Notes: generated by a model from the sequence alone, not told the origin. 64,000 nucleotides of DNA from Myxococcota bacterium (GCA_965228475.1 OZ245817.1:1568001-1632000); one strand, 5' to 3'. Shown: positions 20,786 through 49,514, counted from the stretch's first letter. Program-made: numbers and translations.

Positions 20786-23700
20786 ATGTCGAACCCGAGC
20801 ACTTCGCCTCCGCTGTTCTCGAGCCCGTCGCGGCGCCGGACCCTGGCCCTCGCGGAGGAGCTGGTGAACGTCCCGCTGACGACCGTCGTGGCGCCGGGGG
20901 GCAGCGGGAAGACGACGCTCCTCTCGGCCTGGCGCGCGGCCCTGGCCGCGAATACGCGCCAGGTCTGGCTCGATGCTTCGACGATCCACGGCGACGTCGG
21001 AACCTTCGTCGACGATCTGCTCCACGGCCTGCAGGCCGCGCTGCGGGGCGCCCCGTTCGGCCGGGAGACGACGCGGATCCTCTCGAACCTGACCGGGGGC
21101 GAGGACGACTGGCGGATCCTGCACCGCGCCTTCCTGCGCGACTGGCTCGGCGTCGAGGGGGAGACCGTGGTCTTCCTCGACAACTTCCACAACGTCCCGG
21201 CGGGATCCCCCGCCGACCGGTGGGTTTCCGAGATGCTGCGGAGCCAGCCGGCCAACCTGCACTGGGTCGTGTCGTCGCGCGGCACGCTCCCCGGCGCGGC
21301 GGTTCGCCTGGCCGCGGGCGGGCTCGTTCACGAGGTCGGCTTCGACGACCTGAACCTGCGCTTCGAAGAAGCGAAGGCGCTGCTCGAATCGCGCGGGATC
21401 GAGGCGGACGACGCGCTCGTGACGACGCTCCTCGGGCGAACCGAGGGCTGGGTGACCGGGCTGCAGCTCGCGGCCCGCGTGCTCCAGCGCGTGGACCCCG
21501 ACGAGCGCCGCGCCTACGCCGAGCGGATCGGCCGGGAGCGGGACCTCTTCCACTACATCGCGGCCGAGCTGCTGGCCGGCGAGAGCGAGGAGCAGATCCA
21601 GCTCCTCGAGCGCGCCGCGGTCCTCGGGCGCGCATCGCCGGAGACGCTCGGCCAGCTCCTGGATCCTCCCGGGGGCCTCGACCGGATCGAGCACGCGATC
21701 GATCACGGACTCCTGCTCGGCGACGGCAACGAGGTCTGGCCCCATCAGCTCTGGCAGGAGTTCCTGCGCGAACGGCTGAAGGCCCGGCTCTCTCCGCAAG
21801 AGCACCGCGCGCTGCACGGGCGCGCCGCGCGGCTGTTGGCCGAGCAGGGGAGGGTCGAAGCGGCCCTCGAGGCCTATCGGGAATCCGAAGACTGGCAGTC
21901 GATCGCGTTCCTTCTCCACGAGGTCGGCCACGAATGGCTCGATCGTGGTCGCGCCCGGGGCGTCCAGCGCTGGCTCGAGGCCCTTCCCGGAGAGGTTCGG
22001 GAGTCGGAGCCGCGACTGCTCGAGATGCAGGGGCTGCTCCTTCTCGAAGCCGACCCGAAGAGCGCAACCCGCTACCTCGAACAGGCGGCTCGCGCCTTCT
22101 CGGAGAGCGGAGACTTGAAGAGCGAGGGCGGTGCCCTCGGCGCACTGACCTACCTCGGCATCACGCGCCTCGACCTCGCGGCGGCGAGACGCTCGTTGCT
22201 GCGGGGCTTCAAGCCCTCCCGGCTGATTTCGGACTCCGGGAAACGGGCGGAGGCCTTCGTCGGCCTCGCGGGTTTTGCCGCGCTCCGCGGCCGCTTCGGT
22301 CGCTCGCTGAAGCTCTCCGAGCGCGCGCTGCGGGCTCCTCTGCCGCCCCTGACGCGCTGGTTCAATCTCCTCAACCTGGGTCTGCTCTACTCCCTCGCGG
22401 GAGACTTCGACCGGGGCCGCACGCTGCTCGACGAAGGCCTCGGCGACCGTGCCGTCTCCCGGCGCGCGTTCGTCTACAACTCGTTGCTGATCGTGAGGGC
22501 GCTGCTCCTCTCGCGCTCCGGAGACCACGCCGCGGCCCGCCGCGACATCGAGGAAGCCCGCCGAGGGATCGAGGACTTTCGCTTCCGGAGCTTCCAGCCG
22601 CCCTGGGCGATGGTGGCCGCCGACGCGCACGCCCTGCGCGGCGATCGCGATGAAAGCGAGCGCGCCTACGCCGACTTCCTCGCCGCCATCGCGAAGGCCG
22701 ACGCCGTTCCGCTCGAGGCCGTGGCCCGGGGCCAGCGCGCGGTGCGTTGCCTCGGCTGGGGGGACGCCGACGGTGCGCGGGCCGAAGCCGAGCGCTGTGC
22801 GCAGCTGCACGAGCGGGGCATCCCGGAGGGCAAGATCGCCTTCCCGTGGTGGATCGCCGTCTCCCTCTGGGTGCTCGGCCGCACCGGCGATGCGAAATCC
22901 GCCTGGGCCCGGCTGGCTCCCTTCCGCCGCGACCTCCGGCCGTCGGGCCTTCCTTTGCTCGAGGCGATGATCGGTCTCACCACCGCCGAGCTCGCACACC
23001 GCGCGGGGGAGGACGCGGAAGCGGCTTCCCTGGCCCGCGACGCCTGGAAGCGGGCGGAGCGCGACGGGGTCCAGCTCGACCCGATGATCTCTCCGCTCGT
23101 GTTGCCCTGGGCCACGGCGGAGGCCTTCCGCCAGGGTGTGGCCGAGGACTTCGCATTCGATGCGCTTCGCCGTCTGTGCCCGGCGGCCGTGCCCGGCGTC
23201 CTCGCGACGCTCGCGAAGGATCGCAACACCTCGGTGCGGATGCGCGCCGTCGAGTGCATGGCGGAGTTCGGCGGCCGCGCGCTGCACGGCCCCCTCGAGC
23301 GCGCGACGCGGGACCGGAACGCCAAGGTGCGCGCGGCCGCCGAGCGTGCGCTGCCGGCCCTCGACCTGCGGCCCGACTTCGCCGTGCGGATCCGCTGCCT
23401 CGGCCGCCTCGTCGTCGAGCGAGACGGAGAGGCCCTTCCGGATTCCGCGTTCCGAGGGAACATGGGCCAGCGCCTGCTCGGGCGCCTGCTCGCGAGCGAA
23501 GGCAGGCCCCTTTCGCGGGACGTCCTCCAGACGGATCTCTGGCCGGAGGCCGACGAGGCCGCGGGAAAGAACAACCTCCGCGTCTCTCTTTCCCGGCTCT
23601 CCGATGCCCTCGACCCCGAGCGTCTGCCCGGTTCGCCCGCCTGGTTCCTTCAGACGGGGGGTGTCGGGGTGGCGCTCGACCTCGATCGTCTGGCGTCCTG

Positions 23701-24154
23701 GGACGTCGGCGAGTTCCGCGAGGCCGCTCGCCGGGCCGAGGCCGCGCGTCGCGAGGGAAACATGGAGGAGGCTCTGTCGGCGTACGCCGTCGCGGTCGAT
23801 CGCTACGAGGGTCCGTTCCTCCCCGAAGCGGCCTACGAAGAGTGGTCGCAGCCGGTGCGCCGTCGGCTCGAGGACGAGTTCCGGGGCGTGGCCGAGCGCT
23901 ACGGCGAGATGCTGCTCGACGGCGCGCGCCGGGAAGAGGCCCTGAAGCTCGCCGACCGTCTGCTCGACGACGATCCGGCGGACGAGAACGCGTGGCTCCT
24001 GCGCATGCGCGTCCAGCTCATGCAGGGCGATCGCGTGGCCGCGAGCCGAACCTACGACCAGGCCCGGGAAGCGGTGCGGGCCGCGCTCGACGTCGAGCCC
24101 GGCGAGGCCCTGCGCGATCTGGCGGCCCGGGTCCGGGGCGTCGCTCCGGAGTGA
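20786..24154 (+). CDS. Large transcriptional regulator: MalT-like NTPase, TPR-like helical region, HEAT repeats, C-terminal wHTH and BTAD
   Basis: APGGSGKTT, VVFLDNFH, RTEGWVTGLQL; HEAT-like DRNTSVRMRAVE/DRNAKVRAAAE; IRCLGRL..LWPE..NLRVSLSRL; BTAD-like DVGEF..YEGPFLP..EEW..DPADE..LDVEPG. Confidence 0.85.
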   Translation: MSNPSTSPPLFSSPSRRRTLALAEELVNVPLTTVVAPGGSGKTTLLSAWRAALAANTRQVWLDASTIHGDVGTFVDDLLHGLQAALRGAPFGRETTRILSNLTGGEDDWRILHRAFLRDWLGVEGETVVFLDNFHNVPAGSPADRWVSEMLRSQPANLHWVVSSRGTLPGAAVRLAAGGLVHEVGFDDLNLRFEEAKALLESRGIEADDALVTTLLGRTEGWVTGLQLAARVLQRVDPDERRAYAERIGRERDLFHYIAAELLAGESEEQIQLLERAAVLGRASPETLGQLLDPPGGLDRIEHAIDHGLLLGDGNEVWPHQLWQEFLRERLKARLSPQEHRALHGRAARLLAEQGRVEAALEAYRESEDWQSIAFLLHEVGHEWLDRGRARGVQRWLEALPGEVRESEPRLLEMQGLLLLEADPKSATRYLEQAARAFSESGDLKSEGGALGALTYLGITRLDLAAARRSLLRGFKPSRLISDSGKRAEAFVGLAGFAALRGRFGRSLKLSERALRAPLPPLTRWFNLLNLGLLYSLAGDFDRGRTLLDEGLGDRAVSRRAFVYNSLLIVRALLLSRSGDHAAARRDIEEARRGIEDFRFRSFQPPWAMVAADAHALRGDRDESERAYADFLAAIAKADAVPLEAVARGQRAVRCLGWGDADGARAEAERCAQLHERGIPEGKIAFPWWIAVSLWVLGRTGDAKSAWARLAPFRRDLRPSGLPLLEAMIGLTTAELAHRAGEDAEAASLARDAWKRAERDGVQLDPMISPLVLPWATAEAFRQGVAEDFAFDALRRLCPAAVPGVLATLAKDRNTSVRMRAVECMAEFGGRALHGPLERATRDRNAKVRAAAERALPALDLRPDFAVRIRCLGRLVVERDGEALPDSAFRGNMGQRLLGRLLASEGRPLSRDVLQTDLWPEADEAAGKNNLRVSLSRLSDALDPERLPGSPAWFLQTGGVGVALDLDRLASWDVGEFREAARRAEAARREGNMEEALSAYAVAVDRYEGPFLPEAAYEEWSQPVRRRLEDEFRGVAERYGEMLLDGARREEALKLADRLLDDDPADENAWLLRMRVQLMQGDRVAASRTYDQAREAVRAALDVEPGEALRDLAARVRGVAPE

Positions 24155-24228
24155 TGCGGCGCCGGGCGCCGGCGCGCGGGCGAGGCCGCAACTGATCGAA
24201 ACGGTTGAGGTTTCCCGCTCCGCGCCGC

Positions 24229-24261
24229 GGTAACGCCGGGGTAATGCCCGGGGCCGATCGT
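24229..24261 (+). promoter_or_regulatory. Putative SARP/wHTH operator (11-bp direct repeat) plus weak -10
   Basis: GGTAACGCCGG (24229-24239) and GGTAATGCCCG (24240-24250); GATCGT at 24256-24261, 6 nt before GTG 24268. Confidence 0.55.
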
Positions 24262-24267
24262 GTTCCC

Positions 24268-24495
24268 GTGGCAAACGAGAAGAAGAACGCATTCGTCGTC
24301 TGGCTCGACCCCGGCGCGGAACCCGGCCAGGCCGATCGCTACCAGGGCCGGATCGAGCACGTCCCGACCTCGACGCGCGAGACCTTCTCGGGCAAGGAGG
24401 AGCTCCTCGCCTTCATCGAGCGTCACTTCGGCGAGTCCGGGAGCACGCCGTCCGTCGAGCCGAGCTCGGACGATGGTTCGGAGCGGTCGCCGTGA
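24268..24495 (+). CDS. Small hypothetical protein (75 aa)
   Basis: MANEKKNAFVVWLDP...YQGRIEHVPTSTRETFSGKEELLAFIERHF; stop overlaps the next GTG (GTGA); alternative start ATG 24244. Confidence 0.75.
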   Translation: MANEKKNAFVVWLDPGAEPGQADRYQGRIEHVPTSTRETFSGKEELLAFIERHFGESGSTPSVEPSSDDGSERSP

Positions 24496-27400
24496 CGGTT
24501 CGCCTCGCCTTCCTGCTTCTGGCCCTGGGGCTCGTCCCCGCGGTGGGCTGCACGCCGATGTCCTCGGAAGGCATCGGCGTCGAGGTCCCTTCGTGGACGC
24601 TCGAGTCGGCGACCGGTGAGGATGGCGCCTTCGAGGTGGTGTACCGCGCGCGCTGCCAGGCCGTCGGGCGCGAGGTCCTGACCTCGGCGGTCCTGCTGCT
24701 TGCCGCGGGCGAGGCGACGGTCGTCGACGGACTGGCCCAGTGCGGGCCGATCGAGGCCGGGGGCGAGGTCGACGCGGGCGATGGCATCACGCTCCTCCAG
24801 TCCTCGCCAGACGCGCTCGACCCCGCGGACTTCGACTTCGCCACGGTGGTGGTCGGACGCGACGACGAACTTCCGTCGACGCGACAGACCTCGACGATCG
24901 AACAGTTCACCTACCCGGTGCAGCTCGCGAGCACCGCCGACGAGGCGATCGTGCTCTCCGCCATGGCCATGAGCGCGGCTCCGGCGACGCGCGTCGTCGT
25001 GGGCCTGACGGTCGCCGAGACACCGCCCGGCGGCAGCGTCGGGACCGCGGGCATCCTGTCGCTGCAGCACGATCTTGCGGTCCCCTTCGACCCGGCCGCG
25101 ATCCACTGGTCGCTCCGCAGCGAGACGGCCCAGGACCTCGCCGTGGGCGTCACCACGAGCCTCGATGGCGTCGGGCACCCGCTCGGTGGCGTCCGCGTCG
25201 AAGAGCAGGGCCCGGAGGGCGATGCCGTCCGCACCACCGAGGCGAGCACCGGCTTCGTGAGCCTCGCCCAGAGCGCGGGCGACTTCCGTTGGCGGTTCTC
25301 GAAGGAGGGGCATCTGCCGGTGTGGCGGCGCCTCACGCTGGCCGCGGGTGAGGTCGCCGCGGTGCATGCGCCCTGGCTCGCCCGGCAGGATTCGGAGCGC
25401 TACCCGGTCACCGTCTTGAACGGCGGCGTCGTCGGAGGCCCCGCCGCTCGCACGACCGTGACCTTCGGTGCCGGCACCGTTTCGGCGAACCTCGAGGCGG
25501 TCCTCACGGAGCTCGACGGCCAGGCGCTGCCCGCCGCGCTGCCGATCGGCTGGAGCCCGCTGAACGCCTTCTGGCTGGAGCTCGCGGAAGACCCGAGCGA
25601 GGCCGCGACCGGAGCGCTGCAGCTCCTCGACGCTCTCGAGCCCGGCGAGGCCGGTGCCTTCGCGCGGTTCGCTCCCGACGCTTTCGCCTGGCAGGTGCTC
25701 GAGGTGGTCGGCGGCGACGGCGGGGATGCGGTCGACGTGGCCGTGCCCGGAGCCGGCGCCTACGTCTTCGCGGTCGCGGACGTCCTGCCCGCGGCGCCGC
25801 CGGCGCCCGAAGTCGGGCTGCCGCTCGGCCCGGCCGCGGCAACCTTCCCCGAGCCCGGCGAACTCGAGGGCGAGGGCGCCGTCGATCCGGCCGTCCGCGC
25901 GGCGAGCCTCCTGCCGGAGCACGTCACCGGCCTCGGGCGCGTGGAGATCTCGCACGAGGACCCGCTCGCCAGCGGGCTCCTGCTGCGGGGCGAGGTCGAC
26001 GAGCACTACCGCTTCTTCGACGGAGAGGAGCGGCGAACGCCGCGCTATCCGATCTCGGTCGTCGCCTACCAGCGCCCGGGAGACCGGGATCCGCGCACGC
26101 TCGAAGCGACCTTCCCCCTGCGACCGACGGCCCTGTTCGGGCCGACCGAGCTGGCCGAGGCCACGCTCCAGGTCGAGATCCTTCCGCCCTCGGCCTTCGC
26201 CGGCGCCGTCCTCGGCGACAGCGGCGGCCTGGTGGTCTCGGCGCAGGCGGCGGCGCTGGTCCCGGCGGACGTCCTCGCCGGCGACACGCCCGTCGAGCTG
26301 CGCGACCTCGAAGCGGGGGCCTTCGGCCCGGACGCCGTCCTCGCCTTCGATCTCTCGGTCGGGGGCGTCGTATCCGGGCAGCGCTTCGAATGGTTGCTCG
26401 GCCGCGGCGAGCCCGGCGCCCACTACGTCCTGGCGGCGGCGGTCTCGCGCTTCGGGCTCTCCGGGCTCGAGCCCCTCGAGCGCTACCGGGCCGACGAGAC
26501 GGGCCTGATCGTTCGCGACGAGCCGGTGAGCGGGGGTCTCCCCGGCGTTCGCGGGCCGGGCCGGCTCGTGCTCGTGCGGGTCGACGGGCCGCAGGCGATC
26601 GTCGAGGGCATCGTGCGCGACACCGACGGGATCGCGCGCCCGGGCCTGGCCGTGCAGATCGCGGGCACGCCCTGGCTGACCTTCTCGGACGCCACGGGGG
26701 GTTACCAGCTCGTCGCGGGAATCGGGCCGCGCGAGGTCGTCGTGATCGACCCGGGGAACGGAGATCTCGGAACCGCGGGGTTCGAAGTGCCCGCGTCGCT
26801 CGCTGCCGTGGGCGTCGACGCCGCAACGGCCCCGACCGGGCCGCGCATCGTCGAGCGCATCCCCGCCGACGGGGAGCGGGGCGTCGACGCCGTGACCCCG
26901 GTGGTCGTCCGCTTCTCGGAAGCGGTCGCGCGGGCGAGCTTCGGAACGGACGGGCTGGTCCTGCTCGACGGCAGCGGGACCCCCGTCGACGGAAGCCTCT
27001 CGCTGAACCTCGACGGCAACGAGGCGACCTTCCTGCCCGTTTCACCCCTGGTCTACGGCAGCGTCCACACGCTCGTCGTCAGCGGCGCGCTGCAGGACGA
27101 GATCGGTCTGCCGATCGAAGGCGACGAGGCCTTCCGCACCTCCACCTTCACCATCCAGGCGGCACCGACTCGCGGCGAGGGCGCCCAGCTCGCGATCTAC
27201 GAGCCCGGCTCGACCCTCGGGTACGCGGCCTGCGACGCCGCGGGCGTCGCCGGGATGGAGTTCGTCCCAGAGACGTTCATCTGCGTCCTCGGGAGTCAGG
27301 GCGCCGCGGACCCGGAGGTTCCGGTCGTCCTCGCGAACGACAGCACGGGCGCCACCGCGACCACGGACTCGAGCCCCGACGGCAGCTTCGCCGGCGTGCT

Positions 27401-30400
27401 CGAGGCGACGGTCGACGACTTCGTCTCGGCCACCTTCGTCAACGGCAACGGAACGCGCATCCGCATTCCGGTGCAGCGCCAGCTCTTCGACGACGGGAGC
27501 GTGGCGCTCTACGCCGCCGGCGGGATCCTCGAAGCCGAGAACGAAGAAGCCGGTGTCGTGCAGGTGCTGGTGGAGCCGAACGCGATCCCGAACAAGTCCA
27601 AGTTCAAGCTCGACCTCTTCGACGACTTCGCGCAGCTCCTCGAGGCCGTCGAGAACACGCCGCCCGAGGACGGGCAGCTCCTCGGTGGCTTCGAGATCGA
27701 GTTCTCCGGAGACCCTCTCGAGGAGGCCGCCGACTTCACGTTCCCCGTCGATCCGGCCGACCTCGACCTCGAGCCGGGTCAGACCGTCGAAGACCGCTCC
27801 TTCATTCTCGCCGAACCGATCGAAGTGGACGGCACGCTCGTCTACCGGACGGTCGACGCCATGAAGTGGGATCCGGAGACACAGACCCTGTTCACGTCTT
27901 CGCCCCCCTTCGATGCGTTCCTCGGGTTCGGCCGCTTCCTGCTGACCCCGCTCATGCTCCCCGTCTTCAAGGACAACGAGCTCACCATGACGGGCCGCGT
28001 GGTGGCGGCCCCCGAGGAGATCGCGAACGAGCTCACGGAGGAGCAGATCCGCTTCGCGCTGCCGCCGATCCGGCCGGTTCCGGGCGCCATCGTGACGGCG
28101 GACATCGGCGGCTTCTCCCAGAACAACGCGGGCCTTCGCGCCGGTGCGATCGTCGCGCGGGCGAACTCTCGGGGCTTCTTCGCCTTGCGGGTTCCCTTCA
28201 ACCCCTTCACGGGCGATCCCGTCTTCCTGCGCGCCCAGAGTCCCCTCTACCCGGGCCGCCGCGCGACGGACGGCTCGGTCGCCCCCACGATCTTCAACGG
28301 GATCCCCGAGAAGGTTCGGAACCTCGTCTTCAGCATGCCCGAGAACGCGAGCGCGGACGGGTTCGCACCGCTCGTGACCGCGAGCCCCGAGACCAGCGTC
28401 CTCCCGGTGGGCGAGGACGTCACGGTCTACATGACCATCCAGGACGATCGCAGCGCGCCCTACCTGAACGGCATCGCCCTCGATCCGACGCGATCGATTT
28501 CGCTGGTTCCGGGCCAGGCGCTCGGCCCGGTGCTGGTGAGTCAGGGGGCGAGCACCCCGATCACGCCCACGTCCATCGGAGCGGAGGTCACCGTCCAGGT
28601 CGAACGCTCCTCCCTGGTGACCCTGCTCGCCACCGCGGTCGACCAGGCGGGCAACGAGCGCGTGGTTCCCTTCCGGCTGCGATTCGGCGTGCCGCCCGAA
28701 GCGCCCCCGACCGATCTTCAGCCCTACGACGACGACGATGCGACGCCGCCGCGCGTGGTCTCGGTCACGCCGGGCCGGGGCGTCATGCTCGCGGCGCTCG
28801 ACGAGATCGTGATCCGCTTCAGCGAGGCGGTGAGCGAGAGCATCGAAACGGACTCGGTGAGCCTCCAGCCTTCGGGGCTCTCGATCATCGATCCGATCGT
28901 CGAGCTCTCGGACGACCACCTCACCGCCGTCATCTATCCGTCCGGCCTTCCGCCCGGGACCGAGGTCACCCTCGCCGTCGACGCCCAGGATCTCGCGGGC
29001 AACGCCATGGACACGTTCTCGACGAGCTTCCGCACGGCGCCTTCGGAGACCGCCCAGCTCCAGGGCGTCGACTGGCCCGTGGCGACGGTGGTGAGCGGCG
29101 CCTTCGCGTACACCCTCGATCGCGGAGTGGGGGACGGCGCCGAAGGCATCGTCGTCCACGATCTGGGCAATCTTTCCCAGAACCCGACGCCGGCGGGCTT
29201 CTTCGGGCTGCCGGAAGCCCCGCGCACCCTGACGCTGCTCACCCCGTGGAGCTTCAAGACCGGCCCGACCGAGCCGACCCGCACCGCGTCGCTCCTGGTC
29301 GCGACCGGCGGGGTCCTCGGCGAGGGCAACGCGGGGCAGTGGATGTGGGTGGTCGACGTCTCGGACCCGGCATCGCCCCAGCGGGTCGCGGGCGGGCTCG
29401 TGAGCATCGACGTCGCATCGGCGGTGACGAACGTGCGCTGGTCGGCGCCGCGCGTGGCCCTCGGGCTGAACACGCCGGAAGGCGGGCGGATCCTGCACAT
29501 CGATCTGCAGGCCTTCATCCTCGGTTCGAACGGGACGCACCAGACCGGGTCGCCGAGCCCCGGCAACGACGACAACGCCGACGGCGACTACGTCGACTCC
29601 GGAGACACCCTGCCGACCCCCCAGTTCGGGACGCTCTGGGGCCACGACTTCACCACGGCGGCCGCGTTCAAGCGCATCTTCCGGGACTTCGACCTGGCCT
29701 TCGGCGGACTCCTCGTCGCGAGCGCGATGCCCACCCGGCCCGAGACGAGCTCGGGCGGTCCGGGGGGGCCGCTCCCCGAGTTGAAGGGCCGGCTCCAGAT
29801 CCACAGCTTCAACGGACTGCCCGTCGGGAACGGCGACGGTGCAGAGGGCGGGCTCGAGTTCGACGAGGACCCGTGGCGGGTCCGCCTCGATCCGAGCTTC
29901 CCCGTCACCGACGACACCGGCCTGCGCATCGTCCCGGTCGCCCTCGTGAGCTACGGCGCGAAGATCGGCGTGGTCGAACTGACCGACCCCTTCGAGCCCG
30001 AACTCCTGCATGAGGTGTTCCTCGGGCCCGACGTCTCGAAGATCTTCTCCATCGAACGCGCGGACCCGGACACCTACGCCGTCGGGACCCAGGAAGGTGT
30101 CTTCCTGCTCGACCGCGAAGAGCTCGGGGAGGAGGCGGACAGCACGACGCTCCCGCACCACGCCGTGCAGGCCCGGCTGCCCACGCCCTTCGGTTCGGGG
30201 CGCACCTTCGGTGCGTCGTCCACCGCCGTGGCCGTGCCGGGGGGTCAGGTCGCGCGCCGTCCCCCGGCGATCGCCGTGGCGCGCTCCATCGGGGAGTCGG
30301 TCCCGAGCCGGACCGACGTGCTCGGGCTCGCCCTGGAGGAGCGCCGTGCCTTCGCCGAGAACCTCGTGGAGACGTCGCTGCTCTTCCCGGCCTCGCTCAC

Positions 30401-42200: not shown

Positions 42201-45200
42201 CGCGGTCGGCCGCATGCGCAGCGCGGGCGAGATCGAGCATGCCGCATCGCAGCGGGGCGAGGCGCCCGAGTTCACCGTGACCCTCGCCGGTGTCGGTACG
42301 GTTGGAGGCCGGCTCTTGTCGAGCGACGGCACGACCCCCGTCGAGGGCCGCGAGGTCCGCCTCGAGATGACGGGCGATTTCGTCCGGGACACCGCGACGG
42401 TCCTGAGCAGCGCCGACGGCAGCTTCGCCTTCGACGACGTGCCGGTCGGTGACTTCCGCCTGACGGCGACGGATGCGGCTCTCGCGGCGACGGCGAGCGG
42501 CACGATCGCGGTTCCGGGGGAGCATCGCGACCTCGACCTGGTGCTCTCCGCCAGCGGCAGCGTGGCCGGGCGCCTGCTGCGGGCCGACGGCAGCCCCGCG
42601 CCCGGTCAGGACGTGCTGCTCGCCTTCGTCCCGCCGTCCGGGCTGCTCGGCAGGGCGCTCGTCGAGACCGGCGCCGACGGCAGCTTCCAGTTCAACGAGG
42701 TTCCGGTCGGGCCGGTGTCCGTCGCCGTGGCGGCCCTCGGCTTCAGCGGCATCGTGAACCGCGACGCGGAGCTCGTGACCAACGGTGAGCTGCTCGACCT
42801 TGGCGACCTCACGCTCGACGAAGTCGAACCGGCCGTCGTCGACTCGGACCCGTTCCCCCAGGACGAAGACGTCCCGACCGACGTCCCGATCCGGATCACC
42901 TTCAGCGAGGCCCTCGCCCCGGAATCCGTCGACGAGAGCGGCATCTATCTCCGTTCCGTCGCCGGGGTCGTGCCCGCGGAAACGGTCCTGGTCGAGGACG
43001 ATGCGTCCGGCGAGCTGCGCCTCGTCGAGATCCGGCCCGATGCGGAGCTCGAGAGTGAGACGGCCTACGAAGCCGTGGTCCTCGCCGGGGAGTTGCGGGA
43101 TGCGCTCGGTGGCCTGATCGGCAGCGGGCCGCGGGACCTCGCCGGCCGTCCCCTGCGCGTTTCCGCGATCATTCCGTTCACGACCCGCGACTCCCGTCCG
43201 CCCGAGCGCCTCTCCTTCACCCCGGGCGCGGGCCAGATCCAGGTCGATCCGAGTGCGGTGATCCGGCTCTCCTACGACGAGCCGCTTCGCAGCGACGAGA
43301 TCGTCGTGACCCTGCGCGACGGCGGCGGTCAGGAGCTGCCGGGGCGTGTGGACGTCGGCGTCGGCCAGCAGGTGGTGGTCTTCACCCCGGACGCGTTCCT
43401 CGATCCGAACGCGCTCTACTCGGTGACGGTCGACGGCATCCGGGACCTCGCCGGAAACGCTGCCGTGGACCTGCCGCTCGAGCGGAGCTTCGCGACCCTC
43501 GACACGGTCGGGCCGACGATCTCCGAGCTGAGGGTCGTGGGCGGAGCCGCTCCGGTCGCCGGGGCGATCCTCCCGATCGAAGCGGTCCTGGCCCAGCCCG
43601 AGGCGGCGGCCTCGGTTCGCATGACCGCGGATCTCGTGGTCTTCGGGCAGAGCACGCCGGGCTCCCTCACGCTGCCCTACGAGGTCCCCGCCGACGGCCA
43701 GGTCACGATCCGGGGCATCGCCATCGATCGCTTCGGCAACGAGGGGCCGATCGGGCCCGAGCTCGTGCTCGACGTGGTTCCGAACCAGCCGCCCTCGGTG
43801 ATCTTCATGCCCGTCACGCCGCCCGGGGGCCCCGTCGCGACGGGCGAGACGCTCGAGGTCGAGGTGAGCGCGAGCGACGACGTCGGCGTCGTCGAGATCC
43901 GCGCCGCGGCCCAGGGAGCGTGCACGGCGCCGCTCGCGACGAGCGCCGGTGCGCCCATCCGGGTGACCTGCACGGTCGACCCGGAGGCCGGCCCGGAAGA
44001 TGCGATCGAGATCCTGGCCGAGGCGATCGACGGGGCCGGCGCTTCGAGCGGCGAGCAGGCCTTCGCGGTCGGGCTCGCCGACGGAACCGCGCCGACCGTC
44101 GCCATCGTGTCTCCGGGGGCGGACGAGGAGGTCGCCGCCGGGATGACGCTCTCCGTCGAGGTGGACGCCGCCGACCGCTTCGGCGTGACCGAGATCGTGC
44201 TCGAGGCGAGCGGTGCCCTCACCGAGCAGCAGACGATCACGCCGCCCGCGCCGGAGACCGAGGGCCGCTACGTCTTCGGCCTCGACGTCCCCGCCGAGCT
44301 CGACGCCGGCGAAGAGATCGTGCTCCTCGCGACCGCGCGGGATGCCGCCGGCTTCGAACGCTCGGCCGAGCTCCGCTTCCGCACGGCGGACCTCGTCGGC
44401 CCGACCCTCGTCGAGATCCTCCCGGTGCAGGACGCCCTCGATCGGTCCGCGGTGCCGGTGCTGCGCGCGCGCTTCGACGAGCCGATCGATCCGACCTCGC
44501 TCCCGATCGACGGCTTCGTCCTGGCGGAGGAGGGCGGACCGAATCTGGCGACCCACCTCGGGCTCGGCGACGACGGGCATACGCTCACCCTGCGGCCGCA
44601 GGCGCCGCTGGCCCTGGGCGGTCGCTACGAGTGGAACTTCGCCGGGGGCGTGACGGACCTCTCCGGGAACGTCCTCACGGCGACCGACGGCACGCCCTTC
44701 GTGGCGGTGGCGCAGGCCTTCACGGTCGGGACCGCGGACATCGTGGCGCCCGCGGACGGCACGGTGCTGATCGAGGGCGAGCCGCTCCAGCTCGCCGTCG
44801 ACGCAGCCCGCCTGCCGGGGACGCGACGCCTCACGTTCTTCGGGAACGCCGCCGAGCTCGGAAGCGACGAGTCCGAGCCCTTCGTGCTCGACGGCACCGT
44901 CCCGACCCAGGCCGACCTCGGCGGTGATACCTGGACCCTCGGCGCCGACGTGAACGGCGGCGACCTCGCAGCGGGCCGGCCGGTGAGCCTCGGCGGAGCG
45001 GGCGTTGCCTGGCGCGAGGTCGACCTCGGTGCGGTGGCCGGGCTCGAAGGCGTGGAGGTCGACCTCTCCGCCGACGCGGCCTTCGCGCTCCTCCTGGCCG
45101 AAGCGCCCTTCGACGAGAGCGACTTCGCCGGGAGCGGGCTGCCCGCCGGCTTCCGCAACGGTGCGATCGAGATCCATCGCAGCGTGGCGCCCGAGAACGG

Positions 45201-48189
45201 AACGGTCTCGATCGCAGGTCCCTTCTCGGGCCGGTACCTGAGGCTCGCGGCGCTCACGCAGGGCGCGCCCCTGCCGGTCGCGGACCTTCGCGCTGCGGGA
45301 GCCCCGATCGCGCTCCCGGACGTGACCGTTCGCGTGCTCGACGCCCTCGGCGACGCGGACGGCGACGGCATCCCGAACGGGGTGGAGGTCGCGAACGGCC
45401 TGAACCCCCTCGTCGACGATGCCGCGGACGATCCCGATGGCGACGGTCTCGGCAACGCCGAAGAGGTGGGTCTCGGGACGGATCCCTTCGCCAGCGACAC
45501 CGATGGCGATGGCCTGCTCGACGGCGAAGAAGCGAACACCACGGGAACGGACCCCCTCGATCCGGACAGCGACGGCGACGGCATCGAAGACGGGCAGGAC
45601 CTGGCGACCGGACCGCGCCTGATCGAGCTCGCACCCGCCGACGGCGCGACGAACGTCTCCGTGCGACCGATCGTCCGCGCCCGCTTCGACGAGCCGATCG
45701 ACGAGACCACCGTCGACGCGAGCCGATTCCAGCTCCTCGACCCGGCCGACGCCCCCGTTCCCGCCACGGTGGCGCTCACCGAGGGCGGCCGGGTGCTCAC
45801 GCTGACGCCCGACGGTCCGCTCGCCTTCGAGGCCGCCTACACGGTGGTGCTCTCGGAGGAGCTCGCGGCCGACGACGGCAACGGCATCACGGCCGCCGAC
45901 GGCAGCGCGATCGCGCCGGCCCGGTTCACCACGGGCAGCTTCGGCCTGACGAACCCTGCCGATGGGGCCCGCCTGCTCGAGGGCGACGTCATCGAGCTGG
46001 CGGCCAGCGGCAGCGCCGCCCTCGGCATCGCCCAGGTCGATTTCGAGGTGAACGGTGCGCTCGCGGCCGAGGACACCGAGGAGCCCTTCGCGACGCCCTA
46101 TGCCGTCCCCGCGGCAACGGATGCGCCGGCGCTCGAGATCGTCGCCATCGCGCGGGACGCGGAGGGCGTCGAGATCCAGCGCGACACGGTGAACGTCGAG
46201 GTCATCGTCGGCCTGCGCTCGGGCGTCCGCCTGCTCGGCGTGCCGCTCGGCGGAACGGCCGCATGGCGTCTCGAGCTGCCGGTCCCGCGCCTCGACGACC
46301 TCCCGGTGACCTTCGAGGTCGTCGACGAGACGATCGCCTCGGCGCCGGCCGCCGCGGTGCTGCCCGCGGGCGAGACGGTCCTGGCGCTTCCGATCACCGG
46401 TCTCACCGAAGGCGCGACCCTCGTCATCGCACGAACGGAGCAGGACGAGGTGGTGCTGACGGCCTCCGTGAGCCAACCGCTCTCCGGTCAGACGCTCGAT
46501 GCCGTCGCCGTGTCGATCGGCGCGGTCGTCCGGCCCTTCCCGAGCGCCGGGGTGGTGGTCGTGCCGGCCTCCTCCTCTGCGACGGTGAGCGTCCAGCTGC
46601 TCGAAGCGCCCGCGCCCGCGGCGACGCCGGTCACGGTCGAGAGCCTCGATCCGGCGATCGCCGACGCCGTCGTCGGGGTCACCGTGCCGGCGGGCGAGAC
46701 CCAGGCGGAGGTCACCGTCCTCTCCGGCATCGAAGGGGAGACGAAGCTGAACCTGCGCGCCGGGAACGAGGGCCGGGAGCTCCGCGTCGTCGTCGGCGCC
46801 GTCGCGCCGGACCGGACGACGCCGGTGGTCGCCCGCCCTGTCGGCGCGGCCGTCCGCAACTTCCCCTTCGCCGGGCAGGTCGTCGTCCCGGCCGGCGGCG
46901 AGAGCACGATCACCGTGCAGGCGCTCTCCGGGCCCGCGGGCACCGAGACGCCGGTCTCCGTCACGAGCAGTGCTCCGGGCGTCGCAGAGGTCTCCGGCAC
47001 GCCCGTGGTCGGCGTCGGCGAGACCGACGTGGCGTTGACGATCGTGCCGGGCGCCGAGGGCCAGGCGATTCTCACCATCGTGGCCGGCGGCGAGGGCCGC
47101 GAAGTGCGCGTGATCGTCGGCGAGCCCGCGGCGGACCGCGTGATCCCCGTCGTCGCGCGGCCCGTCGGTGCGGCGGTCCGAAACTTCCCCTCGGCGGGCC
47201 AGGTCGTGGCCGATCCGGAGACCGTGCAGACGGTCACGATCGACCTGCTCGACGCGCCCGCCGTCGGAGCCACCCCGGCAAACGTGAGAAGCACCGACCC
47301 GGCAGTCGCGCAGGTCACGACGCCGGTGATCGTGCCCGACGGCGCGACGTCCGCGACGCTCGTGATCGAGGTCGGCGTCGAAGGCGACGCGATCCTGAGC
47401 GTCACCGCGGCCGGCTCCGGCCGCGAGGTCCGCGTGGTGTCTGGCCCGCTCGCCCCGAACCGGACGGCGCCCGTCGTCGCCCGGCCGGTCGGCGCCGCGG
47501 TGCGCAGCCTGCCTTCGGCCGGGAACGTGATCCTCCCGGAGGCCGCGACCCGGACCGTGCGCGTGGAGCTTCTGGGTTCGGGGGCGTCGGAGCCGATCCC
47601 CGTCGTCATCACGAGCGGCGACGCAGGCGTCGCGACGGTCCTCGGCGCGCCCACGATCGGAGCCGGCGAGACCGGCGTGGACCTCGAGATCGCCGCGGGC
47701 GCCGCGGGCCGCACGGCCTTCACCCTCGTTGCGGGCACGGTCGCCCGCGAACTCAGCGTCGTGGTCGGGGATGCGTCGTCGTCGACGACGCCCCCGGTCG
47801 TGGCCCGGCCGGTCGGTGCGGTGGTGCGCGAGGACGGCGGGCTCGGAGCGCTATATCTCGAGCCCGGCGGATCGCGCCTCACCACGCTCACCGTCCTCCC
47901 GTTCCCGTCCCTCGCGGATCTCCCGGTCACGGCGAGCAGCGACGATCCCGGCGTCGCCGGCCTGAGCCCCTCGAGCCAGACGCTCTTCACCGGAACCCGA
48001 ACGATCACGCTGAACATCACCGCCGGCGGAACGCCGGGGGCGACCCGGATCCTCGTGGACGTCCCGGGCCGCCCGCAGGAGAGCCTGCGCGTCTTCGTCG
48101 GCGAGGTGCCGACAGCAGAAGTCCCCACGACCGTGGCGCCGCCCGTCGGCGTCGAGGTCGAAACCCCCGTCGATGAGGGGCCGTTTTGA
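36262..48189 (+). CDS. Giant (3975 aa) exported protein: carboxypeptidase-regulatory-like and Ig-like repeats, TSP3-like Ca-binding repeats, C-terminal 108-aa repeats
   Basis: Sec signal MSRLCTLLGVALALFANAASA-Q; many GxVxGxV..TDxxGxFxFxxVPxGxY units; ITFSEAL/RFDEPID..DLAGN units; DxDGDG repeats; 8-bp overlap with the upstream giant gene. Confidence 0.9.
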   Translation: MSRLCTLLGVALALFANAASAQVVRPLAVLEMRVQGVGAIVSPETLAVPKGIAGSIRVDVIAGDSSGAAATSTLPDTAIVEATLRGPSFPARRILGLPGEPILLPALPLVGDYRLDGIRILDEATGEVLVEGNPASIPIQVFEEVLVSRVTSRPLTLDEIRGKGIVIDDSNFRAVEFEVGFVVDGQTFPVKFPVVAPRFAQSTEIIPTAEVEAALVEAERINRELGIDASLPPELEASGLNIEVQGINVQLVDPGGEVDLELQVPPIPALVVIPGNIGYLNQFFSVQLYTENASPLGSGLSVHGLEAQLDLPPGPDRIAAAPELSCRDAGDDPLRFARVGEAAAIEPVQPVVTPGFDGVLGTPDDGTRLQPGDTGQAEFLVEGCREGLHVMDISLRGRLDGLVAGTVDIEGRASGSVLVRNPNFSLAFTHPRTIRTGEPYTASVTLLNTSFTAANLVSVTLPEASISGAEFADPEFDGTIELGTILPGETATAEFELLAQRTGSITFSQLTSDSDVTGRFRLKMGVDERGVALSPDAVGFPEFAGEVEERLPDLFAAANRVLGQALSVASAPQRPAGVLALGKSVVRQRVLEVAEAGQRLRYGDSVERVLLDWALDWQGARRASPGFDQILRETDAGRLYREALAAALEAATGQGAAAALLDRAADLAGRGETWTFVGAPAGIDPVRLEGEERATLGESALERVVGYRGALGGWVAGPASAAALHRFEVTSDVGSQTIWRLDLLGDGSGVLREWSAPGALAGDCFVHEGGDALSVDAGCDGSLEETLTASATPVVEAGPEVLAAIQDITVNTGRPRRTCDGPTEYRNYGTVVAVLFSKAMAQAGIDAPGAFRLDNGVEATSVQIQPGGRVALLQLASAVGTLRERQLGVDGIVDPRGNPLEAASVPVQATADLGVSIVGRVALANGEPAPGVPVTLTMYDSQSTSFECIPFVSRVSQVESDEEGRFSFDFVLAGLPYSLSATNTVGLSGAAVELILESAQGDAFTREKLQELASLPENRDTLLEAFAIGAIPEAIALAEGLDRALLRDRIAAGSPRVGTEVPVALRFRGRGSVAGVVLDAAGFPVADVAVNLFPDVGSRELGRGVFSDDQGQFAFFGVPLGAYSIEAVAPDGTSRRVSGRVDRADEADEIEIVLSAEVIATTGLSGRVLDPDAMTGHGGARVFVGRFEGGAFGNVVAAATADSEGFWSVDGVPVGGWDVVAVSFDGRTKATRMGVAASEGVTSRVSLVLQGRATVVGRVEFANGQSVPGAMVAGGEGIVTTDENGAFRLEGVPTGQSSISAGLAKDPAAGIDFTRLGSATVDVVPGQENFAVIRLEPRGRIQGRVFDAAGNLLTGVNVAIPFPGGGGFYWTEVDEEGRYAFDNLPLGEWVVSAPAPPVADKDVGDILSVIASPDSTQGEILAAIGDAFAIFTGANDPLLNGEGLEFNPLSWGFQNVSLAADGETVERDVRFFRNGTIAGTVLNGQDVPIGARVRLTGIGPSPAGAPTMVIRGERNSDAALGTFEFPGQALAGDWGIQVASPFFPDPIATSGRTNDASPDALGLTLQFPPESEVNGRLAGVVLGPDGLPVGEDVLVRISFGDLEIRTNPEGRFDTQLDLPAVDDRGRRRSYQVEAEDGAGLRGRTIAAMSPGITTEVEVRLLARGGVALTVFDASGNRVEGASVEIRGGGFPYEHFPGLPTNAAGEVSLGNLTEGPYAAEARIASGPTTICGRVGFTVVAGETVTATVVLRPTGTVAGLFVEEDGETPIPFAQIDVQGLGFAATDVAGAFEIEGIPLGNYRIVAQDPVNGRLAIGEASVGFEGERVEVLLRVRRLAEVHGAVISGFGDALVPGATVTLGVLDGITPSRSVTTDPGGFFVFPGVPSGPFSLSATDPVRPGVAAGVAAVMPDDVDEFRVDLALSALVNVSGTVYRSDGFTPATEATVTLTGNSFSQSADTDALGRVRFTGLRAGRLDVRARSNAVGRMRSAGEIEHAASQRGEAPEFTVTLAGVGTVGGRLLSSDGTTPVEGREVRLEMTGDFVRDTATVLSSADGSFAFDDVPVGDFRLTATDAALAATASGTIAVPGEHRDLDLVLSASGSVAGRLLRADGSPAPGQDVLLAFVPPSGLLGRALVETGADGSFQFNEVPVGPVSVAVAALGFSGIVNRDAELVTNGELLDLGDLTLDEVEPAVVDSDPFPQDEDVPTDVPIRITFSEALAPESVDESGIYLRSVAGVVPAETVLVEDDASGELRLVEIRPDAELESETAYEAVVLAGELRDALGGLIGSGPRDLAGRPLRVSAIIPFTTRDSRPPERLSFTPGAGQIQVDPSAVIRLSYDEPLRSDEIVVTLRDGGGQELPGRVDVGVGQQVVVFTPDAFLDPNALYSVTVDGIRDLAGNAAVDLPLERSFATLDTVGPTISELRVVGGAAPVAGAILPIEAVLAQPEAAASVRMTADLVVFGQSTPGSLTLPYEVPADGQVTIRGIAIDRFGNEGPIGPELVLDVVPNQPPSVIFMPVTPPGGPVATGETLEVEVSASDDVGVVEIRAAAQGACTAPLATSAGAPIRVTCTVDPEAGPEDAIEILAEAIDGAGASSGEQAFAVGLADGTAPTVAIVSPGADEEVAAGMTLSVEVDAADRFGVTEIVLEASGALTEQQTITPPAPETEGRYVFGLDVPAELDAGEEIVLLATARDAAGFERSAELRFRTADLVGPTLVEILPVQDALDRSAVPVLRARFDEPIDPTSLPIDGFVLAEEGGPNLATHLGLGDDGHTLTLRPQAPLALGGRYEWNFAGGVTDLSGNVLTATDGTPFVAVAQAFTVGTADIVAPADGTVLIEGEPLQLAVDAARLPGTRRLTFFGNAAELGSDESEPFVLDGTVPTQADLGGDTWTLGADVNGGDLAAGRPVSLGGAGVAWREVDLGAVAGLEGVEVDLSADAAFALLLAEAPFDESDFAGSGLPAGFRNGAIEIHRSVAPENGTVSIAGPFSGRYLRLAALTQGAPLPVADLRAAGAPIALPDVTVRVLDALGDADGDGIPNGVEVANGLNPLVDDAADDPDGDGLGNAEEVGLGTDPFASDTDGDGLLDGEEANTTGTDPLDPDSDGDGIEDGQDLATGPRLIELAPADGATNVSVRPIVRARFDEPIDETTVDASRFQLLDPADAPVPATVALTEGGRVLTLTPDGPLAFEAAYTVVLSEELAADDGNGITAADGSAIAPARFTTGSFGLTNPADGARLLEGDVIELAASGSAALGIAQVDFEVNGALAAEDTEEPFATPYAVPAATDAPALEIVAIARDAEGVEIQRDTVNVEVIVGLRSGVRLLGVPLGGTAAWRLELPVPRLDDLPVTFEVVDETIASAPAAAVLPAGETVLALPITGLTEGATLVIARTEQDEVVLTASVSQPLSGQTLDAVAVSIGAVVRPFPSAGVVVVPASSSATVSVQLLEAPAPAATPVTVESLDPAIADAVVGVTVPAGETQAEVTVLSGIEGETKLNLRAGNEGRELRVVVGAVAPDRTTPVVARPVGAAVRNFPFAGQVVVPAGGESTITVQALSGPAGTETPVSVTSSAPGVAEVSGTPVVGVGETDVALTIVPGAEGQAILTIVAGGEGREVRVIVGEPAADRVIPVVARPVGAAVRNFPSAGQVVADPETVQTVTIDLLDAPAVGATPANVRSTDPAVAQVTTPVIVPDGATSATLVIEVGVEGDAILSVTAAGSGREVRVVSGPLAPNRTAPVVARPVGAAVRSLPSAGNVILPEAATRTVRVELLGSGASEPIPVVITSGDAGVATVLGAPTIGAGETGVDLEIAAGAAGRTAFTLVAGTVARELSVVVGDASSSTTPPVVARPVGAVVREDGGLGALYLEPGGSRLTTLTVLPFPSLADLPVTASSDDPGVAGLSPSSQTLFTGTRTITLNITAGGTPGATRILVDVPGRPQESLRVFVGEVPTAEVPTTVAPPVGVEVETPVDEGPF
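45352..45600 (+). repeat. Four DxDGDG thrombospondin type 3-like calcium-binding repeats
   Basis: DADGDGIPNGVE, DPDGDGLGNAEE, DTDGDGLLDGEE, DSDGDGIEDGQD. Confidence 0.85.
46498..48160 (+). repeat. Tandem 324-bp (108-aa) protein repeats marked by PVVARPVGAAVR
   Basis: Motif starts at 46498 (degenerate), 46822, 47146, 47470, 47794 and 48127 (TTVAPPVG). Confidence 0.9.
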
Positions 48190-48206
48190 GTTGGAAGGAG
48201 TCGAAC

Positions 48207-49514
48207 ATGGAACGACGAAACACGCTGACAAGAAGGAGCACGTGGCTCACCGGGTTCGTCCTGGCGGGGCTCGCCCTGGCTCTTGCGCCGAGTGCGCAGG
48301 CCCAGAGCTTCGACATCTGCGGCTGTGAGGGAAGTCCGGACTCGCTCGGAGACTTCGTGTCGGGCGACCCGGAGACCTGGCCCGAGGGGACTCAATACTC
48401 GAGCGGCAGCTCCTTCATCGGGCTGCCGCCGACCGAGGACGGCGTGCACGTCTTCGACAACGTCACGATCTCCAACTTGCCGAGCGGCCGCCAGGCCTAC
48501 CTGTACTTCCAGCGCAACGGAAAGAACTCGCCGGCGACCCTGCTCGTCAGCGGGAATCTGGTCATCGGTAGTGGGGACCAGATCAACGTCGACGGCGGGC
48601 CTGGAACGAGCGGGAACGGTTCGGTCGCGGGCCTGGGCGGGAACGGCAGCCCCGGAGGCTTCGCAGGCGGCGACGCGGCCTTCCCGGCTTCGAACCTCGA
48701 GACCGACGGCGGGGCCGGGGTCGGACCCGGCGGAGGCCTGGGCTCCGTGGGCTACGCCGCGGGGGGTGGCGGAGTCTTCGTCGGCACGCCGGAGCTTCGC
48801 CCGCTGCTCGGGGGATCGGGCGGCGGCGGCGGCGGCGCGACTGCGGGCTGCAGCTCCGGCGCGGGAGGCGGCGGCGGCGGTGGCGGCGCCGTCTTGATCG
48901 CCGTCAACGGAACCGTGACCGTCACCGGATCCATCGAGGCGGACGGCGGGAACGGCGGCAGCACCAGCAACGGCAACTGTGCGACCGGCGGCGCGGGCGG
49001 CAGCGGCGGCGCGATCCGGATCCTCGCGAACCAGGTCGTCGGCAACGGCGGGATCTTCGCTCGAGGTGGTGCGGCCGGCTACTTGAGCAATGGCGGGTCC
49101 CCCGGTGTCATTCGCATGGAGGTGATCTCCAACAGCTACGGCACGAACACGGATCCGGTGGCGCTCCGCCTGGCCGCGCCGGGGCCGCTGGCCAATCCCA
49201 TCACGCCGATGGTTGCCATCACGGCCATCGACGGGGCTGCGACGCCCGCCGAGCCGATCGGCTACCTCGGCGACATGGACATGATCGTCTCCGCCCCCGG
49301 CTCGATCCAGATGGACCTCGAGACGAGCGCGGTGCCGAGCGGAACGGACGTCGAGGTCACGGTGAAGCCGAAGCTCGGCGATCCGCCGATCGTCGAGCGG
49401 GTGACCCTCGAGGCCGCCAACTGCAGCGCGGGCGTCTGCACCGCCGCCGTGAACGTCGACCTCGACCCGGGCGCCTACATCGTGGAGGCCCGCGCCACGT
49501 TCGAGACGCCCTAG
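48207..49514 (+). CDS. Exported glycine-rich protein
   Basis: SD ggaaggag; signal ..FVLAGLALALAPSAQA-Q; GGSGGGGGG, GGGGGGGGAVLI, GGAGGSGGAIRI blocks; several Cys. Confidence 0.85.
   Translation: MERRNTLTRRSTWLTGFVLAGLALALAPSAQAQSFDICGCEGSPDSLGDFVSGDPETWPEGTQYSSGSSFIGLPPTEDGVHVFDNVTISNLPSGRQAYLYFQRNGKNSPATLLVSGNLVIGSGDQINVDGGPGTSGNGSVAGLGGNGSPGGFAGGDAAFPASNLETDGGAGVGPGGGLGSVGYAAGGGGVFVGTPELRPLLGGSGGGGGGATAGCSSGAGGGGGGGGAVLIAVNGTVTVTGSIEADGGNGGSTSNGNCATGGAGGSGGAIRILANQVVGNGGIFARGGAAGYLSNGGSPGVIRMEVISNSYGTNTDPVALRLAAPGPLANPITPMVAITAIDGAATPAEPIGYLGDMDMIVSAPGSIQMDLETSAVPSGTDVEVTVKPKLGDPPIVERVTLEAANCSAGVCTAAVNVDLDPGAYIVEARATFETP

Follow-up and report, generated by a model that had tools for sequence, protein, structure and literature searches.

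A conserved gene trio with exchangeable payloads, one of them an RHS cage, in Myxococcota and other bacteria

What would an exported RHS-repeat protein of 3925 residues be doing in a genome region where no secretion system to deliver it can be recognised? The question is raised by a 64,000-nucleotide stretch of a Myxococcota genome (GCA_965228475.1, OZ245817.1:1568001-1632000; hereafter the window), in which positions 20786-49514 hold five co-directional open reading frames (ORFs), all on the + strand: a regulator, a small ORF, two giant genes (giant-1, which carries the RHS repeats, and giant-2) and a gene for a Gly-rich protein. A preliminary description of this DNA had taken all five as one regulated locus for a giant cell-surface RHS apparatus. 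As judged from sequence comparison between related loci, the conserved unit is made of three genes (giant-1, giant-2 and the Gly-rich gene) and not of five. The reading that we favour, with chances that we place slightly short of even, is that the trio is a conserved, horizontally spread surface module whose lipid-anchored carrier would present an exchangeable payload, here an RHS-caged and probably membrane-active domain, for contact-dependent attack independent of a type VI secretion system (T6SS).

Extent and distribution of the conserved unit

The five ORFs and their junctions were found to be as first described. Giant-1 (24492-36269, +; 3925 amino acids) starts within the end of the small ORF, start and stop sharing GTGA at 24492-24495, and overlaps giant-2 (36262-48189, +; 3975 amino acids) by 8 bp (36262-36269, ATGAGTAG). 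Giant-2 is in turn followed by a 17-nt spacer with a Shine-Dalgarno sequence (GGAAGGAG) before the ATG of the Gly-rich gene (48207-49514, +; 435 amino acids, 21% Gly). All five are regarded as genuine coding genes, since GC at the third codon position reaches 0.85-0.92 in each of them, compared with about 0.70 overall. Scans of the locus for promoters and terminators gave no signal exceeding shuffled controls. The N-terminal export signals reported earlier for the three large products were also recovered: judged by eye, giant-1 starts with a hydrophobic stretch followed by a lipobox-like AVGC (Cys20; 24492-24551, +), and both giant-2 and the Gly-rich protein carry AxA-type signal peptides which are kept in their orthologues.

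Homologues of the Gly-rich protein were found in 8 of 61 related genomes, that of the window (G000) counted, and at all seven Myxococcota loci with upstream DNA (G041, G057, G053, G048, G036 and two in G089) the Gly-rich gene is immediately preceded by a giant-2 homologue. Because an automatic locus search on alignments of the Gly-rich protein (poly-Gly patterns) failed, returning no relatives in genome contigs and a single weak one in metagenome contigs, the named genome collection was scanned with a degenerate pattern of the near-invariant C-terminal motif of the protein, and a match was accepted as a true homologue at a tblastn E-value below 1e-20. The scan gave 78 matches, 36 of them true homologues; 31 of these have at least 1500 nt of upstream DNA, and at the other five the contig breaks off before that, with the C-terminus of giant-2 still visible at one (L134). 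At 30 of the 31 loci, which are from metagenome-assembled genomes (MAGs), a giant-2 homologue in the same orientation immediately precedes the Gly-rich gene, so that over all loci with upstream DNA the giant-2 orthologues (27-53% identity) miss this position only once. The counts of 7 of 7 and 30 of 31 overlap and are not independent, as several loci belong to the same genomes. Five genomes from outside the Myxococcota contain seven Gly-rich copies, each 11-14 kb downstream of a giant-2 N-terminal domain and on the same strand, and one further giant-2 in these genomes lies about 1 kb from a contig start (C44). A giant-1-like gene directly upstream of giant-2 was present at 5 of 5 Myxococcota loci and at 7 of 7 loci from other phyla. 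The co-occurrence expected from the preliminary description therefore holds for the three large genes, beyond what would be expected of independent genes (7/7, 30/31 and 12/12).

As labelled, the carriers are MAGs of Myxococcota or 'delta proteobacterium', Acidobacteriota/Vicinamibacterales, Sedimenticolaceae, Chromatiales, other Gammaproteobacteria, Betaproteobacteria and Spirochaetaceae, and all carriers seen are MAGs or uncultured organisms. Two module contigs of 67-71% GC (L081 and L085) sit in bins labelled Acidimicrobiia and Bifidobacterium; these labels are doubtful, since the module has the Sec and lipoprotein logic of diderm bacteria. The same-genus genome G001, which is 89% complete, gave no match to the Gly-rich query, and of 401 Myxococcota genomes sampled, only about 6 have a full-length homologue, which makes the module accessory and patchy in its distribution. 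The neighbouring genes of the trio vary between loci.

The three proteins and their payloads

The domains recognised in giant-1 with Pfam and NCBIfam are CarboxypepD_reg, two Big_5 domains, DUF6531, RHS/YD repeats and, with a score just short of its cut-off, an Rhs-associated core, while a search of PDB sequences with this protein gave no match. Orthologues align at 41% identity over 3301 amino acids (G053) and 31% over 3700 (G048), and the Cys following the hydrophobic stretch is kept in all four complete orthologue N-termini (among them those of G053, G048 and G041). Whatever the payload and the phylum, the giant-1-like proteins retain a module at residues 225-1050 (25164-27641, +), with CarboxypepD_reg at 704-758 and Big_5 at 782-881, which shows 25-29% identity over about 800-940 amino acids to the giant-1-like genes of G089, G057, G041 and L140-L145. 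Behind this module the content changes. An RHS cage occupies the giant-1 slot in G000, G053 and G048, and a subtilase (Peptidase_S8) is found at 6 of the 12 other loci examined, five of them by Pfam (G041, G057, G089, L141 and L144) and one (L140) by homology to G041 only. A PGAP1-like hydrolase is present at L145, and the domain scan, which left out L140 and the fragmented L146, recognised no payload at L142 and L143. Among 32 database proteins sharing the module (E≤1e-5), RHS repeats occur in 26 and LCAT, abhydrolase or PGAP1 domains in 3, the remaining 3 being two short proteins with DUF6531 and one with neither RHS repeats nor a hydrolase domain. Since the content behind the shared module is what changes, giant-1 is, on this comparison of sequences, a carrier whose N-terminal module is shared and whose payload is exchangeable, with the RHS cage as but one of several alternatives. 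The first thousand or so residues would then form the conserved carrier and the C-terminal third the payload, here the RHS/YD cage with its DUF6531 plug. The earlier view of RHS as the core of the apparatus has to be given up, given the subtilases and the hydrolase found in the same slot.

Two MAGs show further arrangements. The Betaproteobacteria MAG G421 has three giant-2 genes (on C28, C44 and C95) and at least two complete modules, with a subtilase as payload on C28 and none recognised on C95. In a Sedimenticolaceae MAG (L078:10243-20032), a 2294-residue FG-GAP and RHS protein with 12 RHS-repeat stretches lies directly downstream of the Gly-rich gene and is followed by an FG-GAP/PKD protein of at least 966 residues which runs off the end of the locus, the giant-1 slot being of the subtilase type; RHS is therefore linked to the module in a second way.

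In the giant-1 of the window, the RHS N-terminal plug DUF6531 (PF20148) was matched at residues 2165-2216 (30984-31139, +) with an E-value of 7.5e-09, and 1.3e-09 in a second scan (36.2 bits against a cut-off of 24.1), and YD-type sequence begins by eye within about 200 residues of it. The RHS/YD-repeat shell with the Rhs-associated core extends over residues 2380-3557 or so (31629-35162, +; the shell start is approximate), with matches to RHS_repeat (PF05593, E 2.4e-17) and YD_repeat_2x (TIGR01643, E 3.3e-20, 71.7 bits with the cut-off at 15.8). At the end of the core stands RDGA...DRDGA, both Asp of which align by eye with those in the canonical DPAG...DPTG of G048, and because both catalytic Asp appear to be kept, autoproteolytic release of the enclosed domain of 370 residues is expected from the sequence. 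Three more RHS-repeat loci were seen outside the window on the same contig (G000 C1, 395499-398021, 1025305-1025541 and 4633334-4634656), in open frames of 3159, 2287 and 1214 amino acids, respectively.

The giant-1 C-terminal domain (residues 3558-3925, about 370 amino acids; 35163-36266, +) has no Pfam or NCBIfam family. Its Lys content is 5.1%, compared with 1.0% for giant-1 overall and 0.3% for giant-2, and this compositional break coincides with the boundary of the RHS core. The domain is rare, with 15 matches at E≤1e-3, itself included, among 1.84 billion representatives; five of the 15 are giants of 3056-3985 amino acids which all have Big_5, DUF6531 and RHS. A weak similarity (28% over 139 amino acids) connects it to the C-terminal domain of G053. 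By inspection it is helical, and with a glycine-zipper-like hydrophobic stretch at 3612-3630 it is probably membrane-active; its target could be non-self cells, in which case it would be an effector. An atlas look-up gave a best score of 0.81 with unnamed clusters, and 0.75 with an RTX hemolysin cluster, the latter no more than a lead.

Behind its signal peptide, giant-2 is a chain of beta-sandwich domains, in which ten CarboxypepD_reg, four Big_5, one Big_7 and TSP3 were recognised by Pfam and NCBIfam; a search of PDB sequences gave one weak NOMO match only. Its best-conserved part across phyla is an N-terminal domain at residues 27-681 (36340-38304, +), with 37-65% identity in an alignment of eight sequences and 39-45% in the five genomes from outside the Myxococcota, and without a relative in Pfam, NCBIfam or, by a profile search, PDB sequences. 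After this 650-residue domain, the chain would comprise about 35 beta-sandwich domains. The C-terminal Ig-like repeats of about 110 amino acids each (residues 3290-3975 or so; 46129-48186, +) have no Pfam match and end in a conserved tail, APPVG(I/V)EV; they share 42-44% identity with distant orthologues, compared with 29-33% for the middle of the protein. The tail was considered as a donor strand and dropped, as the same motif is the first strand of every repeat and may reflect mere domain phasing.

For the Gly-rich protein, an AlphaFold2 model built from an alignment of 35 sequences reached a predicted local distance difference test score (pLDDT) of 91 and a predicted template modelling score of 0.86, and confidently shows a right-handed beta-helix at about residues 43-326, to which an Ig-like domain is joined at the C-terminus (333-435). 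A first model from six sequences had a pLDDT of 58, and its Foldseek matches were meaningless and were discarded; with the good model, Foldseek gave no PDB match at E≤1e-3. VIA-align returned generic beta-helix neighbours only (Z 8-9.4, background 7-8), namely a Caldicellulosiruptor adhesin domain, the two-partner secretion (TPS) domains of HxuA, HpmA, FHA and EtpA, bactofilin and antifreeze proteins, and aligned the Ig domain with the extender domains of MpIBP (4kdw, Z 7.2; 4p99, Z 7.0). Three features are invariant in the family: a DxCGC right after the predicted signal cleavage site, hence at the mature N-terminus, a C-terminal Cys pair, and E-A-R-A-T-F-x-x-P at the extreme C-terminus; neither the first nor the last corresponds to a sorting tag that we can name. 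A Tat signal was considered, with RR in four of five N-termini, and was rejected as unsupported by NCBIfam. A frame of 3667 amino acids through the G036 gene was likewise rejected as a fusion, its part upstream of the Met being Arg-rich off-frame sequence. The protein has no sequence relative in Pfam, NCBIfam or PDB, and at least 614 homologues in a large protein collection, all unnamed and without Pfam domains; an atlas look-up gave unnamed clusters only (score 0.97), commonest in Verrucomicrobiota. Together with the giant-2 N-terminal domain and the carrier module of giant-1, it makes three sizeable conserved regions without a family.

Possible function and relation to described systems

In the favoured reading, the trio would be exported by Sec, giant-1 through signal peptidase II (SPII) and giant-2 through signal peptidase I, the three proteins being made in fixed proportion from one coupled transcript. 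Giant-1 would be anchored by its lipid in the outer membrane, and the three together may build an elongated structure on the surface from which the payload is offered to other cells or to substrates; giant-2 could be the stalk, the Gly-rich protein the tip, and the two might assemble with the carrier, as the preliminary description proposed. In its RHS version, the module would serve the contact-dependent intoxication of non-self cells. A bolder reading, which we hold to be doubtful, takes the trio for a machine of diderm bacteria, not described before and complete in itself, which presents cargo at the cell surface and has spread horizontally over at least four phyla. The lipid-anchored giant-1 would offer the cargo (a subtilase, a lipase or a toxin in an RHS cage), and its two partners, each with a domain of no recognised family, would build or aim the structure. 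If this were true, it would provide the context in which toxins of the Sec-dependent Rhs and teneurin-like kinds are delivered, which has been missing so far. In either case, one lineage of large Sec-dependent Rhs proteins is locked in a conserved trio with two uncharacterised partners, which are testable candidates for display or delivery.

The 32 other ORFs scanned in the window are housekeeping or unrelated, with no PAAR, VgrG, Tc, type I secretion system (T1SS) or TpsB gene among them, which bears out the earlier remark that the window holds no recognisable secretion partner. In the whole genome (a single contig of 5.0 Mb, 96% complete), there was no match to VipB/TssC (PF05943) or PAAR (PF05488), with positive controls matched, and six secretin genes were found elsewhere than at the locus. 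Kyte-Doolittle windows of at least 1.8 were absent from the Gly-rich protein and limited to two single-window peaks in giant-2.

Several observations weigh against the trio being an RHS-bearing surface weapon. In none of the three proteins could an outer-membrane translocator, a beta-barrel or a sorting tag be recognised. At the one exceptional locus of the pattern scan (L115, a partial Gly-rich match), the Gly-rich gene follows that of a 1091-residue PKD protein without similarity to giant-2. The Rhs-associated core of giant-1 (TIGR03696) scores 29.8 bits, under the cut-off of 32.5, and its DPxG motifs are degenerate. The C-terminal domain is about 40 kDa, while the average that fits a YD shell is 15 kDa according to the available text of PMC13018210. 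No immunity gene comes after the RHS gene, where there is no room for an ORF of that size, as giant-2 starts 8 bp before the giant-1 stop, and the C-terminal domain travels with its giant-1 lineage instead of being shuffled. Lineage-bound and without a downstream immunity ORF, it is unlike a shuffled polymorphic toxin with cognate immunity, and a role other than that of a toxin is therefore possible. As the trio also occurs in phyla without a known predatory habit, 'weapon' is perhaps too narrow a word.

The three proteins could instead be regulated together but secreted as independent products, giant-1 as an anchored enzyme or toxin, giant-2 as a giant adhesin and the Gly-rich protein as a binding protein with a beta-helix fold, which would contribute to a common task (for example attachment and feeding) and form no complex. 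Each protein has its own signal peptide, no interface or docking motif was recognised between them, and the variable neighbourhood of the loci would fit as well. We nevertheless find this unlikely, because order and adjacency are strict across at least four phyla with matching copy numbers, the gene junctions overlap, and the most conserved parts (the giant-2 N-terminal domain, and the Gly-rich protein with 37-57% identity) have no enzymatic signature, as would be expected of interaction surfaces.

Less likely still is a feeding scaffold comparable to a cellulosome, with giant-2 as the scaffold to which giant-1 brings a hydrolase and with the RHS version as a lineage-specific derivative. The payloads speak for it, as subtilase is the most frequent one at the other loci and lipase-type ones also occur, as do the Dockerin_1 matches in the subtilase-type giant-1 of G041 (E 1.3e-06) and G089 (E 1.7e-05), the Ca-binding TSP3 repeats of giant-2 and the presence of the module in MAGs of Acidobacteriota, Spirochaetaceae and Proteobacteria. 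However, no cohesin family was detected, the giant-1 of the window is without a dockerin match, and an RHS cage with a cleavable C-terminal domain means toxin delivery in every characterised case covered by the available text of PMC13018210 and PMC10433427. Very unlikely is a new export pathway, analogous in its logic to two-partner secretion, in which giant-2 and the beta-helix protein would be the outer-membrane route for giant-1: no other conserved partner gene adjoins the trio, TPS domains are among the best beta-helix neighbours (HxuA and HpmA, Z 9.3; FHA, 8.3) and the delivery of Sec-dependent Rhs and teneurin-like proteins is called unknown in the text seen of PMC10433427 and PMC13018210, but a Z of 9 is near background and common to any beta-helix, neither giant-2 nor the Gly-rich protein has a membrane-spanning segment or beta-barrel signature, and the six secretins of the genome could serve instead.

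How the surface module proposed here relates to described systems is best seen from its RHS version. T6SS Rhs effectors (PAAR-Rhs or VgrG-dependent) share with giant-1 the DUF6531 plug, the YD shell, a putative Rhs core and the C-terminal payload, but they need PAAR or VgrG and a T6SS, whereas giant-1 carries the signal of a Sec-exported lipoprotein and lacks PAAR, in a genome without a VipB or PAAR match. Giant-2 resembles the giant Ig-like adhesins LapA, SiiE and MpIBP, whose ligand-binding region is distal, in its thousands of residues of tandem beta-sandwich domains. These adhesins are single polypeptides exported by a T1SS through a C-terminal signal. Compared with the giant RTX adhesins of T1SS, the trio consists of three polypeptides with N-terminal Sec signals, and no RTX or T1SS family appeared in the domain scans. 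CdiA likewise carries a C-terminal toxin on a long surface filament, and the Gly-rich beta-helix is similar to helices of the TPS/FHA type, but CdiA depends on a TpsB/CdiB transporter, none of which was found in the window or the scanned neighbours at related loci, and giant-1 has an RHS-caged C-terminal domain and no immunity gene. Tc (ABC) toxins have a gene for the pore-forming subunit TcA and a TcB propeller fused to the cage; their families were absent from the scanned ORFs of the window, and no genome-wide search for TcA was made. With the SitA lipoprotein toxins delivered by outer-membrane exchange (PMC5562445, as far as its accessible text goes), giant-1 shares the lipobox but not an adjacent immunity gene. 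Such toxins go with a neighbouring sitI immunity gene and with TraA/TraB in the genome.

The closest precedents come from the same phylum. According to the available part of PMC10433427, Rhs4 and Rhs5 of M. xanthus have about 4000 amino acids and signal sequences, act in kin discrimination without a T6SS and are presumed to be located at the surface. By this description they are like giant-1 in size, in the N-terminal signal, in being independent of a T6SS and in a C-terminal toxin acting on contact; they differ in being encoded on Mx-alpha prophages and in acting with immunity, whereas giant-1 has no immunity gene and a lineage-bound C-terminal domain, and sits in a trio. Bacterial teneurin-like proteins (TLPs), found in more than 20% of the Myxococcota of one data set (Raoelijaona et al., Nat Commun 2026, PMC13018210), are, by the accessible text of that article, predicted to be lipoproteins of the SPII type. 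Their C-terminal domain is described there as polymorphic and about 15 kDa in size, nearly all of their genes as followed by one for immunity, and their delivery machinery as not evident. Giant-1 has in common with these proteins the SPII signal, N-terminal adhesion domains of the Ig/TTR type, the plug, the YD shell, putative aspartyl autoproteolysis motifs and the encapsulated C-terminal domain. In TLPs, an NHL propeller lies between FN-plug and YD-shell, but a sequence test detected no NHL or TEN_NHL in residues 2100-3540 of giant-1 (E≤10) or in the whole protein (E≤1), and the teneurin-type shell TEN_YD-shell (PF25023) reached only 14.2-17 of the 50 bits required by its cut-off. The N-terminal region of about 2100 amino acids, the larger C-terminal domain (about 40 compared with about 15 kDa) and the missing downstream immunity gene set giant-1 further apart. 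We therefore file it, on the failed NHL and teneurin-shell tests and the absent immunity gene, as a large Sec-dependent Rhs lipoprotein and not as a TLP.

An RHS protein with no known partner, as named in the preliminary description, is not new in itself: large T6SS-independent Rhs proteins (PMC10433427) and lipoprotein teneurin-like toxins with an SPII signal (PMC13018210) are already described in Myxococcota in the text available of these articles. The linked trio, for its part, was not found in the full-text literature searched, although the supplementary operon lists of the TLP article could hold such loci, and no secretion or adhesin system described in that literature corresponds to it, in keeping with the earlier claim. 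A 2023 preprint on giant genes (10.1101/2023.11.21.568195) was considered as a description of the trio and set aside since, in its accessible text, it concerns other proteins.

Local genes around the unit

The regulator (20786-24154, +) has about 1122 amino acids from the ATG at 20786, the longest ORF starting at 20738 with 1138, and combines a MalT-like STAND NTPase, a TPR/HEAT region, a weak winged helix-turn-helix (wHTH) of the OmpR type and a C-terminal BTAD domain, which places it with the transcription regulators of the SARP/BTAD type. Residues 31-455 match MalT (NF003420, E 5e-33, under its cut-off), the Trans_reg_C match at residues 912-961 is weak (17.4 bits against a cut-off of 26.2), and BTAD is matched in Pfam at residues 989-1133 with an E-value of 1.9e-19 (70.9 bits against a cut-off of 22.1). 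The order of the domains is unusual, with the NTPase N-terminal and the wHTH-BTAD part C-terminal. Homologues, full-length or partial, were found at G048 (38% over 1098 amino acids) and G036 only, in both cases downstream of the trio and convergent.

The small ORF (24244-24495, +) has 83 amino acids from the ATG at 24244, or 96 from a TTG at 24205, with no export signal and no Pfam or NCBIfam family. It has four database homologues of 67-71 amino acids with 53-71% identity, and a homologue directly upstream of giant-1 at G048, which is the single syntenic case; none was found at G053 or the remaining loci compared. By their occurrence in the sequences compared, the regulator and the small ORF are local additions outside the conserved unit, which recur solely in close relatives. 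Given so narrow a distribution, the five-gene locus with a dedicated BTAD activator of the preliminary description was overstated, and the locus would rather be composed of an accessory three-gene module, a local regulator and a small lineage-specific ORF.

The locus is flanked by housekeeping genes, with crcB on one side and a major facilitator superfamily transporter and a TetR regulator on the other. Between the TetR and GH15 genes, a minus-strand ORF (52146-55370) has a C-terminal part of 450 amino acids (52146-53496) without a Pfam family, its third-position GC being unremarkable.

Other loci have other candidate regulators. A different STAND/OmpR-type regulator lies near the locus of G089, and CHAT-TPR proteins take the place of the BTAD regulator at the Acidobacteriota loci. 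In one Acidobacteriota MAG, a divergent CHAT-TPR protein of 816-919 amino acids is encoded a few kb upstream of giant-1 in both copies of the module (L145:3841-6597 and L146:3660-6107), which suggests, from the sequence, that a switch of the protease type may replace the BTAD regulator there.

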